DNA from: a virus
Lineage: Duplodnaviria > Heunggongvirae > Uroviricota > Caudoviricetes
Reading direction: 5' to 3' (one strand)
Length of the DNA stretch: 6,961 bases
IMG/VR virus record: IMGVR_UViG_2531839579_000008
The notes under the pieces were generated by a model. The model saw nothing but the letters and a program-made list of their open reading frames with translations. It searched no databases and was not told the origin of the DNA. This document shows positions 1 to 6,961 of the stretch, one piece after another; position 1 is the first letter of the stretch; every line of letters starts with the position of its first letter. The position numbers and the translations under genes were made by a program.

Positions 1-226
1 TAATTGTATTATCAATAAAATAAAAGCTTGGGCGAGCGCATATAAAGTATATATGGCATTTTGAAAGTTGTTTTTCTTGTTCTAAATTAATTTTTGCATC
101 AGACGTTAGTTGCTGAGCAGTAAGCATCGCTGTAAAACTATTTAAGTATCCAAAAGCAAATTCGTGTATGAATTTTCTTTTCACTCGAAATATCCTCACT
201 AGAAATGAATAATATTGGTTTTTCAT
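1..226 (-). CDS. Hypothetical protein, N-terminal 75 codons only (gene runs off the left edge); candidate accessory/moron gene
   Basis: Reverse-strand frame is open for 75 codons from ATG (complement of 224-226) to position 2, with an in-frame stop (complement of 236-238) just upstream, so this ATG is the first possible start. An uninterrupted frame this long is unusual in DNA of about 30% GC (my count: 26% in 1-100, 35% in 101-200). Translation begins MKNQYYSFLVRIFRVKRKFIHEFAFGYLNSFTAMLTAQQLTSDAKINLEQEKQLSKCH; I recognise no family. No convincing Shine-Dalgarno. Missing from the supplied ORF track probably because it is edge-truncated. Confidence 0.45.
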   Translation of the reverse strand, partial: MKNQYYSFLVRIFRVKRKFIHEFAFGYLNSFTAMLTAQQLTSDAKINLEQEKQLSKCHIYFICARPSFYFIDNTI

Positions 227-555
227 GATAATACTCTATTGATCCTAGACTTACCATTTAAAAAACGAACTGACATGCTCCCGTTGATTAATAAGCTGTA
301 AGGTTAGCAATTCTTTTGGCGTTGAGAACAACTGCGAACTTCCGTTCCTTGCTCAAAGCAGACTGTTAGATTTGATAGCGTTTGGGCTATGTAAGTAGCC
401 AGTTGGAGAATGAGTGAGTGCAAATCAGGACTGGCGGGCGAATTGCCTGCATTTTCTTTATCTGTTGTTTCATCCACTGACCAGCCAGGTCAAATAGCGT
501 CTTATGCTCTGCACAACAGAAAATAGTTGCACCCATTAACCACGGAGTTAAACGG
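227..555. promoter_or_regulatory. Divergent intergenic region; expected to hold the promoter of the reverse-strand ORF and the late promoter of the FI-FII-E-T-U-D operon
   Basis: 329 bp with no ORF of any size worth calling, lying between two divergently oriented genes, and a composition shift from AT-rich (left) to GC-rich (right). Shine-Dalgarno GGAG at 545-548, 7 nt before the FI ATG. I scanned 420-555 for the Ogr-type TGT-N12-ACA dyad of P2 late promoters and found no exact match, so no promoter position is called. Confidence 0.3.
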
Positions 556-1741
556 ATGAGTGACTATCATCATGGCGTGCAGGTGCTGGAGATTAACGAC
601 GGCACCCGCGTCATTTCCACCGTATCCACTGCCATTGTCGGCATGGTCTGCACGGCCAGCGATGCGGATGCGGAAACCTTCCCCCTCAATAAACCGGTGC
701 TGATTACCAATGTGCAAAGCGCAATTGCAAAGGCCGGTAAAAAAGGCACGCTGGCGGCATCGTTGCAGGCCATCGCTGACCAGTCAAAACCGGTCACCGT
801 TGTCGTGCGCGTGGAAGACGGCACCGGTGATGACGAGGAAACGAAACTCGCGCAGACCGTTTCCAATATCATCGGCACCACCGACGAAAACGGTCAGTAC
901 ACCGGACTAAAAGCCCTGCTGGCGGTGGAGTCGGTAACCGGTGTTAAACCGCGTATTCTCGGTGTGCCGGGACTGGACACCAAAGAGGTGGCTGTTGCAC
1001 TGGCATCCGTCTGTCAGAAGCTGCGCGCTTTCGGATATATCAGCGCATGGGGCTGTAAGACCATTTCCGAGGTGAAAGCCTACCGCCAGAATTTCAGCCA
1101 GCGTGAGCTGATGGTCATCTGGCCGGATTTCCTCGCATGGGATACGGTCACCAGTACCACCGCCACCGCGTATGCCACCGCCCGTGCGCTGGGTCTGCGC
1201 GCTAAAATCGACCAGGAGCAGGGCTGGCATAAAACGCTGTCCAACGTCGGGGTAAACGGTGTTACCGGCATCAGCGCATCTGTATTCTGGGATTTGCAGG
1301 AGTCGGCACCGATGCTGACCTGCTTAACGAGTCAGGCGTCACTACGCTGATTCGCCGCGACGGTTTCCGTTCTGGGGTAACCGTACCTGCTCTGATGACC
1401 CGCTGTTCCTCTTTGAAAACTAACCCGCACCGCGCAGGTGTGGCCGACACGATGGCTGAGGCGCACATGTGGGCGGTGGACAAGCCCATCACCGCAACGC
1501 TGATTCGCGACATCGTTGACGGCATCAATGCCAAATTCGTGAGCTGAAAACAAACGGCTATATCGTGGATGCGACCTGCTGGTTCAGCGAAGAATCCAAC
1601 GATGCGGAAACCCTCAAGGCCGGAAAACTGTATATCGACTACGACTATACACCGGTGCCTCCTCTTGAAAACCTGACCCTGCGCCAGCGTATTACCGATA
1701 AATACCTGGCAAATCTGGTCACTTCGGTTAACAGCAATTAA
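556..1741 (+). pseudogene. FI: Tail sheath protein gpFI (P2 family), reading frame interrupted; intact only for 556..1350 (264 aa)
   Basis: N-terminus MSDYHHGVQVLEINDGTRVISTVSTAIVGMVC matches P2 gpFI as I recall it. The ORF stops at 1348-1350, but coding continues in shifted frames: frame 0 (1308-1370) TDADLLNESGVTTLIRRDGFR, frame 2 (1373-1420) WGNRTCSDDPLFLFEN, frame 1 (1423-1440) TRTAQV, frame 0 (1443-1538) ADTMAEAHMWAVDKPITATLIRDIVDGINAKF, frame 2 (1541-1738) ELKTNGYIVDATCWFSEESNDAETLKAGKLYIDYDYTPVPPLENLTLRQRITDKYLANLVTSVNSN, with stop TAA at 1739-1741 overlapping the FII Shine-Dalgarno. Each hop is a -1 step, so five single-base losses near 1305, 1371, 1421, 1440 and 1539. Corrected length would be about 396 aa, the typical sheath size. 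Confidence 0.85.
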
Positions 1742-1753
1742 GGAGCCTGACCG

Positions 1754-2272
1754 ATGGCAATGCCGCGCAAACTCAAGTTAATGAACGTCTTTCTGAACGG
1801 CTACAGCTATCAGGGCGTTGCAAAGTCCGTCACGCTGCCAAAACTGACCCGTAAGCTTGAAAACTATCGCGGTGCGGGGATGAACGGCAGCGCACCGGTA
1901 GACCTCGGCCTTGATGACGATGCGCTGTCAATGGAGTGGTCGCTCGGTGGCTTCCCGGATTCGGTTATCTGGGAGCTTTACGCCGCAACCGGCGTGGATG
2001 CCGTCCCGATTCGTTTTGCAGGCTCTTACCAGCGCGACGATACCGGCGAAACGGTGGCCGTTGAGGTGGTCATGCGTGGACGTCAGAAAGAAATCGACAC
2101 CGGCGAGGGTAAACAGGGAGAAGACACCGAGTCGAAAATCTCCGTGGTCTGCACCTATTTCCGGCTGACGATGGACGGTAAGGAGCTGGTCGAAATCGAC
2201 ACCATCAACATGATTGAGAAGGTGAACGGCGTCGACCGGCTGGAGCAACACCGCCGCAATATCGGCCTGTGA
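1754..2272 (+). CDS. FII: Tail tube protein gpFII (P2 family)
   Basis: Intact 172-aa ORF beginning MAMPRKLKLMNVFLNGYSYQGVAKSVTLPKL, matching P2 gpFII in sequence and length as recalled. Strong Shine-Dalgarno AAGGAG at 1740-1745. Immediately follows the sheath gene as in P2. Confidence 0.9.
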   Translation: MAMPRKLKLMNVFLNGYSYQGVAKSVTLPKLTRKLENYRGAGMNGSAPVDLGLDDDALSMEWSLGGFPDSVIWELYAATGVDAVPIRFAGSYQRDDTGETVAVEVVMRGRQKEIDTGEGKQGEDTESKISVVCTYFRLTMDGKELVEIDTINMIEKVNGVDRLEQHRRNIGL

Positions 2273-2279
2273 TTTTCAT

Positions 2280-2300
2280 CCGGTCAGCCTGGCTGACCGG
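2280..2300 (+). other. Perfect palindrome / stem-loop between FII and E
   Basis: CCGGTCAGCC-T-GGCTGACCGG: two 10-nt arms that are exact reverse complements around a single central T, starting 8 nt after the FII stop. It is followed by TTAACCCC, not a U-run, so it is not a canonical intrinsic terminator. Confidence 0.35.
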
Positions 2301-2328
2301 TTAACCCCGATTCATAAGTGAGAAAACC

Positions 2329-2604
2329 ATGAACAAAGAAAATGTGATTACCCTGGACAATCCGGTCAAACGTGGTGAGCAGGTTATCGAACAGGTCACG
2401 CTGATGAAACCCAGTGCCGGGACGCTGCGCGGTGTCAGTCTGGCAGCGGTCGCAAACTCCGAAGTCGATGCACTGATTAAGGTGTTGCCGCGCATGACGG
2501 CACCGATGCTGACCGAGCAGGAAGTCGCCGCACTGGAACTGCCTGACCTTGTGGCGCTGGCCGGTAAGGTGGTCGGTTTTTTGTCGCCGAACTCGGTGCA
2601 GTGA
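2329..2604 (+). CDS. E: Tail assembly chaperone gpE (P2 family)
   Basis: Intact 91-aa ORF MNKENVITLDNPVKRGEQVIEQVTLMKPSAGTLRGVSLAAVANSEVDALIKVLPRMTAPMLTEQEVAALELPDLVALAGKVVGFLSPNSVQ, matching P2 gpE in sequence and length as recalled. Confidence 0.9.
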   Translation: MNKENVITLDNPVKRGEQVIEQVTLMKPSAGTLRGVSLAAVANSEVDALIKVLPRMTAPMLTEQEVAALELPDLVALAGKVVGFLSPNSVQ

Positions 2605-2756
2605 CGTTCCCGAAAAATCTGTCGGTCGATGACCTGATGGCGGATGTGGCAGTGATATTTCACTGGCCGCCATCAGAACTGTATCCCATGAGCCTGACCG
2701 AACTCATCACATGGCGCGAAAAGGCGCTCCGGCGAAGCGGAAACACGAATGAGTAA
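2329..2756 (+). CDS. E': gpE+E' fusion made by programmed -1 ribosomal frameshift near the 3' end of E
   Basis: Slippery run TTTTTTG at 2577-2583 inside the last codons of E. The -1 frame from 2583 is open to TAA at 2754-2756 and reads VAELGAVTFPKNLSVDDLMADVAVIFHWPPSELYPMSLTELITWREKALRRSGNTNE. Total about 142 aa, the size I recall for P2 E+E'. The E' stop overlaps the T start at 2749. Confidence 0.8.
2577..2583 (+). other. Programmed -1 frameshift slippery site (T6G) for E/E'
   Basis: TTTTTTG heptamer, 20 nt before the E stop codon, with an open -1 frame downstream. This is the arrangement of the conserved tail-chaperone frameshift in P2 (gpE/E') and lambda (gpG/GT). Confidence 0.75.
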
Positions 2757-5174
2757 CAATGTAAAATTACAGGTATTGCTCAGGGCTGTTGACCAGGCAT
2801 CCCGCCCGTTTAAATCCATCCGCACAGCGAGCAAATCGCTGTCGGGGGATATCCGGGAAACACAAAAATCACTGCGCGAGCTGAACGGTCACGCATCCCG
2901 TATTGAGGGATTCGCAAGACCAGTGCACAGCTCGCCGTGACTGGTCATGCACTTGAAAAGGCACGGCAGGAGGCCGAAGCCCTTGCCACACAGTTTAAAA
3001 ACACCGAACGTCCGACACGTGCTCAGGCGAAAGTGCTGGAATCGCAAGCGGCGGCGGAGGACTTACAGGCGAAATATAACCGCCTGACGGATTCCGTTAA
3101 ACGCCAGCAGCGGGAACTGGCCGTTGTGGGAATTAATACCCGCAATCTTGCACATGATGAGCAGGGACTGAAAAACCGTATCAGTGAAACCACCGCCCAG
3201 CTTAACCGGCAGCGTGACGCGCTGGCGCGTGTCAGTGCGCAACAGGCAAAACTTAACGCAGTCAAACAGCGTTATCAGGCCGGAAAGGAACTGGCCGGAA
3301 ATATGGCCTCAGTGGGCGCTGCCGGTGTGGGGATTGCTGCTGCGGGAACGATGGCCGGAGTTAAGTTGCTGATGCCCGGTTATGAGTTTGCGCAGAAAAA
3401 CTCAGAATTGCAGGCTGTGCTCGGTGTGGCAAAAGACTCCGCCGAAATGGCCGCGCTCCGCAAGCAGGCGCGCCAGCTCGGCGACAATACCGCAGCCTCG
3501 GCAGATGATGCAGCCGGTGCGCAGATTATTATTGCGAAAGCCGGTGGGGATGTTGATGCCATTCAGGCGGCAACGCCGGTCACGTTGAATATGGCGCTGG
3601 CGAACCGCCGCACGATGGAAGAAAACGCCGCCCTGCTGATGGGGATGAAATCCGCCTTTCAGCTTTCAAACGATAAGGTCGCTCATATCGGGGATGTTCT
3701 CTCCATGACGATGAACAAAACCGCCGCCGATTTTGACGGTATGAGCGATGCGCTGACCTATGCCGCACCTGTGGCAAAAAATGCCGGTGTCAGCATTGAA
3801 GAAACCGCCGCAATGGTCGGGGCGCTGCATGATGCAAAAATCACAGGCTCAATGGCGGGGACGGGAAGCCGTGCCGTGTTAAGCCGCCTGCAGGCACCGA
3901 CGGGAAAAGCATGGGATGCACTCAAAGAGCTTGGAGTGAAAACCTCAGACAGCAAGGGAAACACCCGGCCAATATTTACCATTCTGAAAGAAATGCAGGC
4001 CAGTTTTGAGAAAAACCGGCTCGGTACTGCCCAGCAGGCTGAATACATGAAAACCATTTTCGGGGAGGAGGCCAGCTCAGCCGCCGCTGTGCTGATGACT
4101 GCCGCCTCAACCGGAAAGCTGGACAAACTGACCGCTGCGTTTAAAGCCTCAGACGGGAAGACCGCAGAGCTGGTAAATATCATGCAGGACAACCTCGGCG
4201 GTGACTTTAAGGAGTTTCAGTCCGCTTATGAGGCGGTGGGGACGACCTGTTTGACCAGCAGGAAGGCGCACTGCGTAATCTCACGCAGACGGCCACAAAG
4301 TATGTGTTAAAACTCGACGGCTGGATCCAGAAAAACAAATCACTGGCGTCAACCATCGGCTCATTGTCGGTGGGCCTGGCCTATTGGTCATCGGTGCCAT
4401 TGGCTGTAGCCTGGCCGGTTATCACGGCATCAATGCCATCATCGCGGCAGCAGGCGCAATGGGGGCATCTTCACGACGGTTGGCAGTGCTGTTATGACGC
4501 CATCGGGGCGATTAGCTGGCCGGTTGTGGCCGTGGTGGCCGCCATTGTCGCCGGGGCGTTGCTTATCCGTAAATACTGGGAGCCTGTCAGCGCATTCTTT
4601 GGCGGTGTGGTGGAAGGGCTGAAAGCGGCATTTGCGCCGGTGGGGGAACTGTTCACGCCACTTAAACCGGTGTTTGACTGGCTGGGCGAAAAGTTACAGG
4701 CCGCGTGGCAGTGGTTTAAAAACCTGATTGCCCCGGTCAAAGCCACCCAGGACACCCTGAACCGTTGCCGTGACACGGGCGTCATGTTCGGGCAGGCACT
4801 GGCTGACGCGCTGATGCTGCCGCTTAATGCGTTCAACAAACTGCGCGGCGGTATTGACTGGGTACTGGAAAAACTCGGCGTCATCAACAAAGAGTCAGGC
4901 ACGCTTGACCAGACCGCCGCCAGAACTCATGCCGCCACGTATGGCACCGGTGGTTATATTCCGGCGACCAGCTCTTATGCAGGTTATCAGGCTTATCAGC
5001 CGGTCACGGCACCGGCTGGCCGCTCTTATGTAGACCAGAGTAAAAACGAATATCACATCACCTGACGGGGGTACTCGCCGGGGAACAGCTCGACCGCCAG
5101 TTACAGGATGCCTCGAAAAATACGAGCGGGATAAACGTGCGCGCGCCCGTGCCAGCATGATGCATGACGGTTAA
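2749..5174 (+). pseudogene. T: Tail tape measure protein gpT (P2 family), reading frame interrupted at several points
   Basis: N-terminus MSNNVKLQVLLRAVDQASRPFKSIRTASKSL matches P2 gpT as recalled. The track splits the gene into 2749..2940 (frame 1), 2937..4310 (frame 0) and 4304..5065 (frame 2). Frame hops: near 2913 (IEGF then RKTSAQLAVTGHAL in the next frame); near 4244 (EAVGT then LFDQQEGALRNLTQTATKYVLKLDGW); three hops in 4362-4499 within a hydrophobic segment; near 5062 and 5112, after which frame 0 reads LEKYERDKRARARASMMHDG to TAA at 5172-5174, which overlaps the U Shine-Dalgarno AAGGAGG (5173-5179). Corrected length about 810 aa, against about 815 aa recalled for P2 gpT. Confidence 0.85.
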
Positions 5175-5188
5175 GGAGGTGACGAAAA

Positions 5189-5662
5189 ATGATGCTCGCG
5201 TTAGGTATGTTTGTTTTTATGCGCCAGACGCTGCCACACCAGACCATGCAGCGTGAATCAGATTATCGCTGGCCGTCAAATTCCCGTATCGGTAAACGGG
5301 AGCTTTCAGTTTCTCGGTGTGGGAGGAAAACATCACGCTTGCCGGTGTGCTTTATCCCGACTGACCGGCGGAAGCTGACGATGACCACGCTCAGGCTGAT
5401 GGCAGAGGAAGGCCGGGCGTGGCCGTTGCTGGATGGCACCGGCATGATTTACGGCATGTATGTCATCAGCAGGGTGAGTGAAGCAGGGAGTATTTTCTTT
5501 GCAGACGGCACACCCCGAAAAATTGATTTTACGCTGTCGCTTACCCGCGTTGATGAATCACTGGCCGCGCTTTATGGCGATATCGGTAAACAGGCGGAAT
5601 CGCTCATCGGTAAGGCTGGCAGTATGGCGACTAAATTCACGGGTATGACGGGGGCGGGATAA
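5189..5662 (+). CDS. U: Tail protein gpU (P2 family); full-length frame but with an internal 25-aa stretch that appears to be read out of frame
   Basis: 157-aa ORF with Shine-Dalgarno AAGGAGG at 5173-5179. The N-terminus MMLALGMFVFMRQTLPHQTMQRESDYRWPSNSRIGKR and the C-terminus KLTMTTLRLMAEEGRAWPLLDGTGMIYGMYVISRVSEAGSIFFADGTPRKIDFTLSLTRVDESLAALYGDIGKQAESLIGKAGSMATKFTGMTGAG match P2 gpU as recalled. The middle segment ELSVSRCGRKTSRLPVCFIPTDRR (5300-5371) is Arg/Cys-rich, while the other two frames over the same bases read FQFLGVG, EENITLAGVLYP and LTGG. Confidence 0.85.
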   Translation: MMLALGMFVFMRQTLPHQTMQRESDYRWPSNSRIGKRELSVSRCGRKTSRLPVCFIPTDRRKLTMTTLRLMAEEGRAWPLLDGTGMIYGMYVISRVSEAGSIFFADGTPRKIDFTLSLTRVDESLAALYGDIGKQAESLIGKAGSMATKFTGMTGAG

Positions 5663-6825
5663 TGCTGGATGCGCTGACATTTGATGCAGGCAGTACGCTG
5701 ACGCCGGATTACATGCTGATGCTCGACAGCAGGGATATTACCGGCAATATCAGCGACCGTCTGATGAGCATGACCCTGACGGATAACCGGGGCTTTGAGG
5801 CTGACCAGCTTGATATTGAACTGAACGATGCCGACGGGCAGGTCGGGCTACCGATTCGTGGCGCTGTCCTGACGGTGTATATCGGCTGGAAAGGTTTTGC
5901 CCTGGTATGCAAAGGGAAATTTACCGTTGATGAGGTTGAACACCGGGGCGCGCCGGATGTGGTTACCATCCGCGCCCGGAGTGCAGATTTCCGCGGGACG
6001 CTTAATTCCCGCCGGGAAGGCTCCTGGCATGACACCACGCTCGGTGCGATTGTTGAGGCGATAGCCTCCCGTAACAAGCTGGAGGCCAGTGTCGCTCCGT
6101 CACTGGCCGGAATTAAAATCCCGCACATCGACCAGTCGCAGGAGTCTGATGCGAAATTCCTGATCCGTCTTGCTGAACGCAACGGCGGTGAGGTGTCGGT
6201 AAAAATGGGAAAACTGTTGTTTCTTAAGGCGGGGCAGGGGGTGACGGCCAGCGGTAAAAAAATCCCGCAGATTACCATCACCCGCAGCGACGGCGACCGT
6301 CATCATTTTGCGATTGCTGACCGTGGAGCCTACACCGGTGTAACGGCAAAATGGCTACACACCAAAGACCCGAAGCCTCAAAAGCAGAAGGTAAAACTGA
6401 AACGTAAAAAGAAAGAGAAACACCTGCGCGCACTGGAGCACCCGAAAGCGAAACCGGTCAGGCAGAAGAAAGCGCCTAAAGTACCGGAAGCGCGTGAAGG
6501 TGAATACATGGCCGGTGAGGCTGACAACGTTTTTGCCCTGACCACGGTATATGCCACGAAAGCACAGGCCATGCGTGCCGCTCAGGCGAAGTGGGATAAG
6601 CTGCAACGGGGTGTAGCGGAGTTCTCCATCAGCCTGGCTACTGGTCGGGCAGATATTTACACGGAAACACCGGTTAAAGTGTCAGGCTTTAAGCGCGTCA
6701 TAGACGAGCAGGACTGGACAATCACTAAGGTGACACATTTTCTGAATAACAGCGGCTTCACGACGTCCCTGGAGCTTGAGGTCAGGCTTTCTGATGTGAA
6801 GTACGAAACAGAAGATGATGAGTGA
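5662..6825 (+). CDS. D: Tail protein gpD (phage late control gene D family, P2 family)
   Basis: Intact 387-aa ORF MLDALTFDAGSTLTPDYMLMLDSRDITGNISDRLMSMTLTDNRGFEADQLDIELNDADGQ, matching P2 gpD in sequence and length as recalled. Its start overlaps the U stop (TAATG at 5660-5664). Contains the lysine-rich basic stretch typical of gpD. Confidence 0.9.
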   Translation: MLDALTFDAGSTLTPDYMLMLDSRDITGNISDRLMSMTLTDNRGFEADQLDIELNDADGQVGLPIRGAVLTVYIGWKGFALVCKGKFTVDEVEHRGAPDVVTIRARSADFRGTLNSRREGSWHDTTLGAIVEAIASRNKLEASVAPSLAGIKIPHIDQSQESDAKFLIRLAERNGGEVSVKMGKLLFLKAGQGVTASGKKIPQITITRSDGDRHHFAIADRGAYTGVTAKWLHTKDPKPQKQKVKLKRKKKEKHLRALEHPKAKPVRQKKAPKVPEAREGEYMAGEADNVFALTTVYATKAQAMRAAQAKWDKLQRGVAEFSISLATGRADIYTETPVKVSGFKRVIDEQDWTITKVTHFLNNSGFTTSLELEVRLSDVKYETEDDE

Positions 6826-6906
6826 TGTTTTGTTTTTATCTGTTTGTTTTATAAGGATAAATTAACTAAAATGGCACCATCAACAAAACCGGAAGAGGTG
6901 CTCGCG
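6826..6906 (+). promoter_or_regulatory. D-ogr intergenic region, presumed to carry the ogr promoter and ribosome-binding site
   Basis: 81-bp AT-rich spacer containing a TATAAG -10-like hexamer at 6850-6855 and a Shine-Dalgarno AAGAGG (about 6893-6898) 8 nt before the ATG at 6907. I could not find a well-spaced -35 element, and there is no GC-rich hairpin after the D stop. Confidence 0.3.
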
Positions 6907-6961
6907 ATGTTTCATTGTCCTTTATGCCAGCATGCCGCACATGCGCGTACAAGTCGCTATA
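6907..6961 (+). CDS. ogr: Ogr zinc-finger late-gene transcriptional activator, 5' end only (runs off the right edge)
   Basis: Translation from ATG 6907 reads MFHCPLCQHAAHARTSRY, which is the N-terminus of P2 Ogr as I recall it and includes the CxxC zinc-binding motif. It sits directly after D as in P2. An in-frame ATG at 6871 would add 12 residues (MAPSTKPEEVLA) but has a poorer ribosome-binding site. Confidence 0.85.
   Translation, partial: MFHCPLCQHAAHARTSRY

Follow-up and report, generated by a model that had tools for sequence, protein, structure and literature searches.

A solitary gene with a predicted GIY-YIG nuclease core at the Z/fun position of a P2-like prophage

The hotspots of P2-like prophages have proved to yield new immune systems, and the Fun(Z) protein of P2 is the product of a lysogenic-conversion gene that blocks T5. 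The fun locus was a second defence-enriched P2 locus in the study of Vassallo et al., where it accounted for three of their validated systems. According to a 2026 survey (PMC13586616), the unknown genes of P2 and P4 hotspots are often antiviral; the same survey describes rapid swapping of hotspot cargo and leaves its mechanism open.

Nucleases of the GIY-YIG type are known from several settings. CMoRE/PD-T4-3 (PMC12923530; PDB 9u75) is a proven single-protein type IV enzyme of this kind, specific for DNA containing hmC and glucosyl-hmC, in which an N-terminal GIY-YIG domain is followed by a C-terminal sensor. SNIPE (bioRxiv 10.1101/2025.11.03.685801) is a proven defence, in which a membrane-anchored DUF4041 protein carries a GIY-YIG nuclease. 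The fold also occurs in the Eco29kI family (PF09517), and with other accessory domains it works in repair (UvrC), in the degradation of host DNA (T4 EndoII) and in homing (I-TevI).

We examined a 6,961-nucleotide stretch of a P2-like prophage (IMG/VR record IMGVR_UViG_2531839579_000008; hereafter the window), whose left edge carries the beginning of a cargo gene. The reference locus was that of E. coli 05-3629 (L001), where position n of the window corresponds to L001 9000+n. The features discussed below are as follows.

1-336, unstranded: right part of the AT-rich cargo cassette (32% GC), which spans about 1.4 kb in all (L001 ~7923-9336), delimited by GC content and by alignment with P2 and Providencia.
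2-184, minus strand: first 61 of the 327 codons of the cargo gene, encoding a predicted N-terminal beta-rich domain and the H-I-Y motif, placed by the GTG start, the conserved MKRKF and identity to WP_223675583.1.
185-226, minus strand: in-frame 14-codon extension from ATG 226, probably a 5' untranslated leader, missing in homologues and beginning with ATA in Providencia.
193-197, minus strand: Shine-Dalgarno sequence GAGGA, 8 nt before GTG 184, read from the sequence, its AGGA conserved in Providencia.
228-256, minus strand: candidate promoter with a -10 element TATTAT (233-228), a weak -35 element TGGTAA (256-251) and an A/T tract upstream, read by eye and conserved in Providencia.
338-372 (L001 9338-9372), unstranded: right-hand member of an imperfect 35-nt inverted repeat that brackets the cassette; the left arm (L001 7889-7923) lies outside the window.
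434-459, plus strand: terminator-like hairpin GCGGGCGAATTGCCTGC (434-450, L001 9434-9450) with a T-run, conserved in P2 and adjoining the G stop in Yersinia phage P37.
463-532, plus strand: late promoter region pF, with the counterpart of the P2 binding site for the activator Ogr at 463-488 and the F-operon start at about 530-532, mapped from the P2 annotation by alignment.
556-1741, plus strand: tail sheath gene FI, broken here by five 1-nt deletions, as judged by comparison with relatives.

A sequence-only reading of the window had drawn attention to an AT-rich left end abutting a GC-rich tail operon, and to a 75-codon frame on the reverse strand that runs to the window edge. Both observations hold. 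GC content is 30.5% in positions 1-200, 29.2% in 1-226 and 31.8% in 1-336, against 55.9% in 556-6825, where the tail genes range from 50 to 61%; the frame is free of stops from ATG 226 to position 2, and when the AT-rich segment was shuffled 20,000 times with its composition preserved, 216 shuffles (about 1%) had a stop-free stretch of this length in at least one of the six frames. Six complete E. coli chromosomes match positions 1-560 at 98.9% identity with zero gaps, and in these relatives the frame continues unbroken for 266 codons past the edge, so that reading leftward recovers a full gene of 327 aa (RefSeq WP_223675583.1, hypothetical) with its stop at L001 8201. Over the visible part, the 75 residues agree in full with the E. 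coli 05-3629 protein. The open frame belongs to a genuine gene, the AT-rich tract amounts to a gene cassette of 1.4 kb rather than a short low-GC spacer, and the full product is not an ordinary tail-fibre or assembly protein. The window's own copy is visible for 61 codons only, in a sequence with many frameshifts elsewhere, which counts against the explanation of the cargo proposed below.

Those frameshifts are 31 deletions of one or two bases relative to all close relatives, with no insertions; they span positions 1304-5372, and there are none in 1-560. They break FI, the tape-measure gene (2749-5065) and U. Because they are clustered (five clusters), are always deletions and fall outside homopolymers, they are probably sequencing or assembly errors; the closest records to the window (E. 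coli genomes and IMG/VR), 97.3-98.4% identical, lack them. At the right end, GC content drops to 41% in 6701-6961, past the end of gene D (6825), and comparison with L001 places the start of an ogr-type late activator gene at about 6907.

The earlier reading had the gene begin at ATG 226, and on this point it was probably mistaken. RefSeq places the start at a GTG (184-182), and we consider this most likely the true start, because the equivalent of MKRKF forms the N-terminus in all 23 homologues compared, down to 30% identity, and because the gene of Providencia rustigianii (92% identical) lacks the upstream ATG. The 14-residue upstream extension is absent from every one of these homologues; in P. 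rustigianii the GTG and AGGA are kept, and the ATG is replaced by ATA, followed by a 1-nt deletion. We therefore rejected ATG 226 in favour of the GTG. The window therefore contains 61 codons of the gene and not 75. The assignment of a cargo promoter at 228-256 is conjectural, and the candidate scores below the threshold of a consensus scan; the position of its TATTAT would predict a transcription start near 220, downstream of ATG 226. At the other end of the cassette a minus-strand hairpin with a 12-bp stem and a T-run (L001 8094-8122) follows the cargo stop codon at a distance of 79 nt; it is likely the cassette terminator, and it too is kept in the Providencia copy. An Rfam scan of the cassette gave no credible match.

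The position of the gene is exactly that of fun(Z) in P2, in both slot and orientation, as the sequence-only reading had proposed. In P2 (AF063097), minus-strand fun(Z) occupies 15675-17261 and plus-strand FI begins at 17652; the corresponding starts in the window are 184 for the cargo gene (minus strand) and 556 for FI (plus strand), so that the distances from start to start are 390 bp and 371 bp respectively. In E. coli 05-3629 the gene is flanked by homologues of G (tail-fibre assembly, 7309-7836) and FI (sheath, 9556-10746), in a P2-like prophage that adjoins yegQ. Alignment of P2 with the window starts only at about position 337 and runs rightward, with none to the left, and therefore all DNA leftward has been swapped in. 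By position the gene is thus P2 Z/fun hotspot cargo, lying between G and FI on DNA not shared with P2. What it shares with Fun(Z) (AAD03288.1) is the slot, the divergence from FI and the backbone flanks: Fun(Z) has 528 aa against 327 aa here, and the two proteins are unrelated in sequence (BLASTP E 1.6). The same prophage carries a second divergent hypothetical gene (L001 1824-2609, minus strand, 261 aa) between the virion-morphogenesis (S-like) gene and baseplate gene V; it has no PADLOC match, and its site may be another cargo slot.

P2-like prophages occur in roughly one quarter to one third of the complete E. coli genomes searched, and the junction proved to be as variable as had been supposed. 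The FI-proximal part of the query was matched in 1,514 of 5,426 E. coli genomes and this cargo was present in six, the remaining alignments of that query beginning at window positions 323-337. The four other prophages inspected carry at the G-FI junction a RES-family NAD+ phosphorylase (two cases), GapS4a/GapS4b, or two other hypothetical genes. Yersinia phage P37 (MT239398; L122 1637-1771) presents an empty hotspot, in which the counterpart of hairpin 434-450 lies only a few bases past the G stop codon, with neither cargo nor inverted-repeat arms.

The arms of that repeat are perfect over their outer 11 nt (AATCTGACAGT / ACTGTCAGATT). The same arms bracket GapS4a/b, RES and other cargo in other prophages (L093 2232-2266/4505-4539; L092 1483-1518/4515-4550; L095 1330-1365/4500-4535 and 3439-3509), and they also lie around Fun(Z); where a prophage carries two cassettes, an additional arm pair stands between them. 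Because the arms frame unrelated cargo, the repeat belongs to the hotspot and not to the cargo gene, and it may be a frame for the swapping or inversion of cassettes. The P2-hotspot papers cited here do not mention it.

The cassette is found outside prophages as well. P. rustigianii (NZ_GG703819; L009 9825-11283) has a stand-alone copy of 1.46 kb, 90% identical to L001 7902-9361 and complete with promoter region and downstream hairpin terminator. A fimbrial operon adjoins it on one side and a LysR gene on the other, and no P2 gene lies less than 10 kb away; the homology stops within each arm, where the perfect 11-mer has its inner edge. For the E. coli-Providencia gene pair dS is 0.20 and dN 0.036, and the ratio of 0.18 indicates purifying selection on the cargo gene.

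No curated library names the protein, in keeping with the earlier suggestion that it might be uncharacterised. Pfam, NCBIfam and PADLOC returned nothing above threshold for the full 327 aa, none of the families in the PADLOC 2.0 models matched, and the sole return from PHROGs was the unannotated family phrog_15714. Below threshold, Pfam gave PF09517 at 12 bits (cut-off 30.8) and PF20815 at a best E of 0.015, and NCBIfam gave the UvrC model only (E 0.11); the weak library matches, to the Eco29kI endonuclease and the UvrC N-terminus, are both to GIY-YIG enzymes. Among 93 family members, sub-threshold Pfam matches were to RE_Eco29kI in 25 and to GIY_YIG_2 in seven. Searching solved structures with the single sequence produced nothing above noise, and Foldseek found no match at E <= 0.001 in the PDB or among the viral structures of BFVD. 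Remote homology and structure prediction, which the sequence-only reading had recommended, point to a remote GIY-YIG nuclease. The predicted structure (pLDDT 85) contains the GIY-YIG alpha/beta catalytic fold, and structural comparison gave figures of 7.1 for T4 EndoII, 6.0 for the UvrC GIY-YIG domain (76 of 89 residues overlaid at 2.3 A, 26% identity), 5.8 for Eco29kI, 5.5 for I-TevI and 4.8 for PD-T4-3/CMoRE. In a profile search of PDB sequences, E236 and N248 of the family align with E76 and N88 of UvrC, and also with the EAALIK...N motif of Eco29kI. On the basis of the structural matches, this alignment and the weak Pfam matches, we assign the central third of the protein as a GIY-YIG nuclease core, whose catalytic set is intact and does not vary within the family.

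In an alignment of 93 homologues reaching down to about 29% identity, the invariant residues (numbered as in the 327-aa protein) are Y46, Y146, G148, R162, H166, Q170, P181, E236, A237, L239, I240, Y242, F243, P245, N248 and H298. The catalytic core, at about residues 140-255, comprises Y146-I-G148, R162-x3-H166, E236 and N248, and so has the Y-I-G strand followed by the helix arginine, the metal-binding glutamate and the downstream asparagine. There is no conserved tyrosine some 10 residues before Y-I-G, the usual place of the GIY-strand tyrosine; an invariant H44-I45-Y46 strand lies 100 residues upstream, its codons at window positions 55-47. H-I-Y46 may supply the first GIY tyrosine, in which case the motif would be split and the roughly 95 residues between would be an insertion. 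In the model the core is flanked by two unrecognised domains, one N-terminal and rich in beta structure, the other C-terminal and small; the former gave only low structural matches, to small DUF971-like folds, and the latter gave none.

Measured against the described enzymes, the protein shares the catalytic fold and residues of the UvrC N-terminal domain, T4 EndoII and I-TevI. The nearest sequence family is Eco29kI, with which it has in common the motif E-A-A-L-I-x-x-[FY]-x-P-x-[YW]-N and the strand Y-[IV]-G-[QK]-A; it differs in its score far below the family cut-off, in its extra N- and C-terminal domains and in having no partner methyltransferase. In CMoRE the nuclease is N-terminal, whereas here it is central between two domains; neither the CMoRE signature GIYxY-YIG nor a PADLOC match to PD-T4-3 was seen. 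SNIPE offers a precedent for a single protein with a GIY-YIG nuclease as defence effector, but its transmembrane helix, DUF4041 and C-terminal nuclease were not detected in the cargo protein.

The family is large and widely scattered. Word-indexed searching returned 139 homologues from Enterobacterales, Pseudomonas, Xanthomonas, Acinetobacter and others, every one labelled hypothetical. HMMER matched 1,299 of 1.84 billion cluster representatives (50% identity level) at E <= 0.001, of which 561 passed E <= 1e-30; almost all have 300-345 aa and align end to end, while a few longer homologues have N-terminal extensions with no Pfam domain, which are probably gene-calling artefacts. Scanning one genome per species confirmed 129 relatives, among them Bacteroidota, Planctomycetota, Cyanobacteria, Neobacillus, Streptomyces and candidate-phyla bacteria. 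A literature search, including by accession, found no paper describing the family.

Its members reside in prophages, ICE cargo, plasmids and small islands, and at 79 of 80 species-level loci the surroundings are free of P2-type tail genes. We found no relative by tblastn in 50,697 phage records, nor among the viral structure models of BFVD; IMG/VR contains a relative on 26 (pro)viral contigs. Two of these, L098 (8001-8984) and L099 (8001-8978), encode 50%-identical homologues in two other P2-like lineages, whose tail proteins are 40-50% identical; one gene lies between U and the tail-fibre module and the other beside D, and therefore the family recurs as cargo at tail-module junctions.

Wherever it occurs, the gene is solitary, with no conserved methylase, antitoxin or other partner. 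No neighbour family recurs among the three nearest genes per side at 80 species-level loci (88 fetched), duplicate loci aside, and a Pfam scan of 296 neighbours (two nearest per side) revealed no recurrent family and no methyltransferase, ruling out a conserved partner gene. Most neighbours in these 80 genomes are ordinary or unannotated genes, and a few are defence genes (Old, GajB, AriA, DRT, mad3), so that the association with defence genes is modest. In P. syringae the gene lies in the cargo region of an ICE; in an Acinetobacter island it stands beside a Cap15 effector, DACNG/DACNH, RelB and an integrase; in a Serratia islet it is next to an OLD-like AAA_15/DUF2813 ATPase; and on a small Acinetobacter plasmid it is found among transposases.

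The best explanation of the cargo, which we hold to be moderately probable, is a solitary anti-phage nuclease. It would account for a self-contained moron in a toxin/defence slot, for the patchy, mobile-linked spread of the family and for purifying selection. Against it stand the absence of a PADLOC match, the mostly ordinary or unannotated neighbours of the homologues and the missing first tyrosine at its canonical spacing. Positions 1-336 would be the promoter-proximal end of a horizontally acquired, self-contained cassette (a 'moron') in a P2-like prophage. Its gene would be read leftward, away from the late tail operon and probably under a promoter of its own, with GTG 184 as start codon and a hairpin terminator of its own beyond the window edge. 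The product would cut the DNA of superinfecting phages and so protect the lysogen. With no methyltransferase, antitoxin or other partner, host DNA would have to be spared either because the enzyme selects modified bases or a DNA form peculiar to phages, the strategy of CMoRE and other type IV enzymes, or because it is autoinhibited and released by infection; the flanking N- and C-terminal domains would do the sensing.

T4 EndoII, with which a phage degrades host DNA, heads the structural matches, and UvrC-type GIY-YIG domains work in repair; both facts would also suit a nuclease in the service of the phage or element itself, degrading host or competitor DNA in lytic growth, acting in recombination or repair, or countering host defences. 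We judge this unlikely: the gene lies outside the late operons and diverges from them, it has promoter-like and terminator-like signals of its own, it is missing from most P2-like phages and from all the sequenced phage isolates searched, and it also stands alone in chromosomes, ICEs and plasmids devoid of phage genes.

The fold, the presence of I-TevI among the structural matches, the location between conserved phage genes and the framing by an inverted repeat could instead suggest a free-standing homing endonuclease, like T4 Seg, that cuts the empty G-FI junction and is copied in by repair; the Providencia cassette, with short P2-type flank pieces at an unrelated chromosomal site, would fit as well. 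Homing enzymes of this type have an N-terminal catalytic domain and a C-terminal NUMOD or HTH DNA-binding domain. The domain order here is different, with the nuclease central; the family is missing from the phage genomes and viral structures searched and is nearly always remote from P2-type tail genes; the repeat is common to RES, GapS4 and Fun(Z) cargo; and the gene is single-copy in each plasmid record, each fetched genome locus and each cassette-bearing E. coli chromosome. Homing is for these reasons very improbable.

Least probable of all is an orphan type II restriction endonuclease like Eco29kI, or the decaying remnant of a restriction-modification system, for which the commonest weak Pfam match and the structural likeness to Eco29kI would speak, since no methyltransferase adjoins the gene here (the neighbours are G and FI) or at the homologues examined, the dcm of the Acinetobacter plasmid being 5.6 kb away and non-adjacent, since the cassette moves alone, and since purifying selection and an intact catalytic set show that the gene is not decaying.

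We propose tentatively, and at somewhat less than an even chance, that the gene founds a new and widespread family of single-protein anti-phage nucleases (about 1,300 clusters, from Proteobacteria to Actinobacteria, Cyanobacteria and CPR), with a GIY-YIG motif split by a beta-rich insertion of about 95 residues (H-I-Y46 ... Y146-I-G) and two undescribed domains that would sense infection or the state of the DNA. The hotspot, in turn, may be built as a series of cassettes that all stand between copies of one 35-nt inverted repeat. The repeat frame may help to explain the rapid exchange of cargo whose mechanism was left open (PMC13586616). The family itself is sizeable and unnamed in curated libraries, combining a predicted nuclease core with two unknown domains, and since it needs no partner gene, the cargo is easy to clone and test. 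Should it prove protective, a compact restriction-like enzyme would be added to those known, and its target may be a particular DNA modification or structure.
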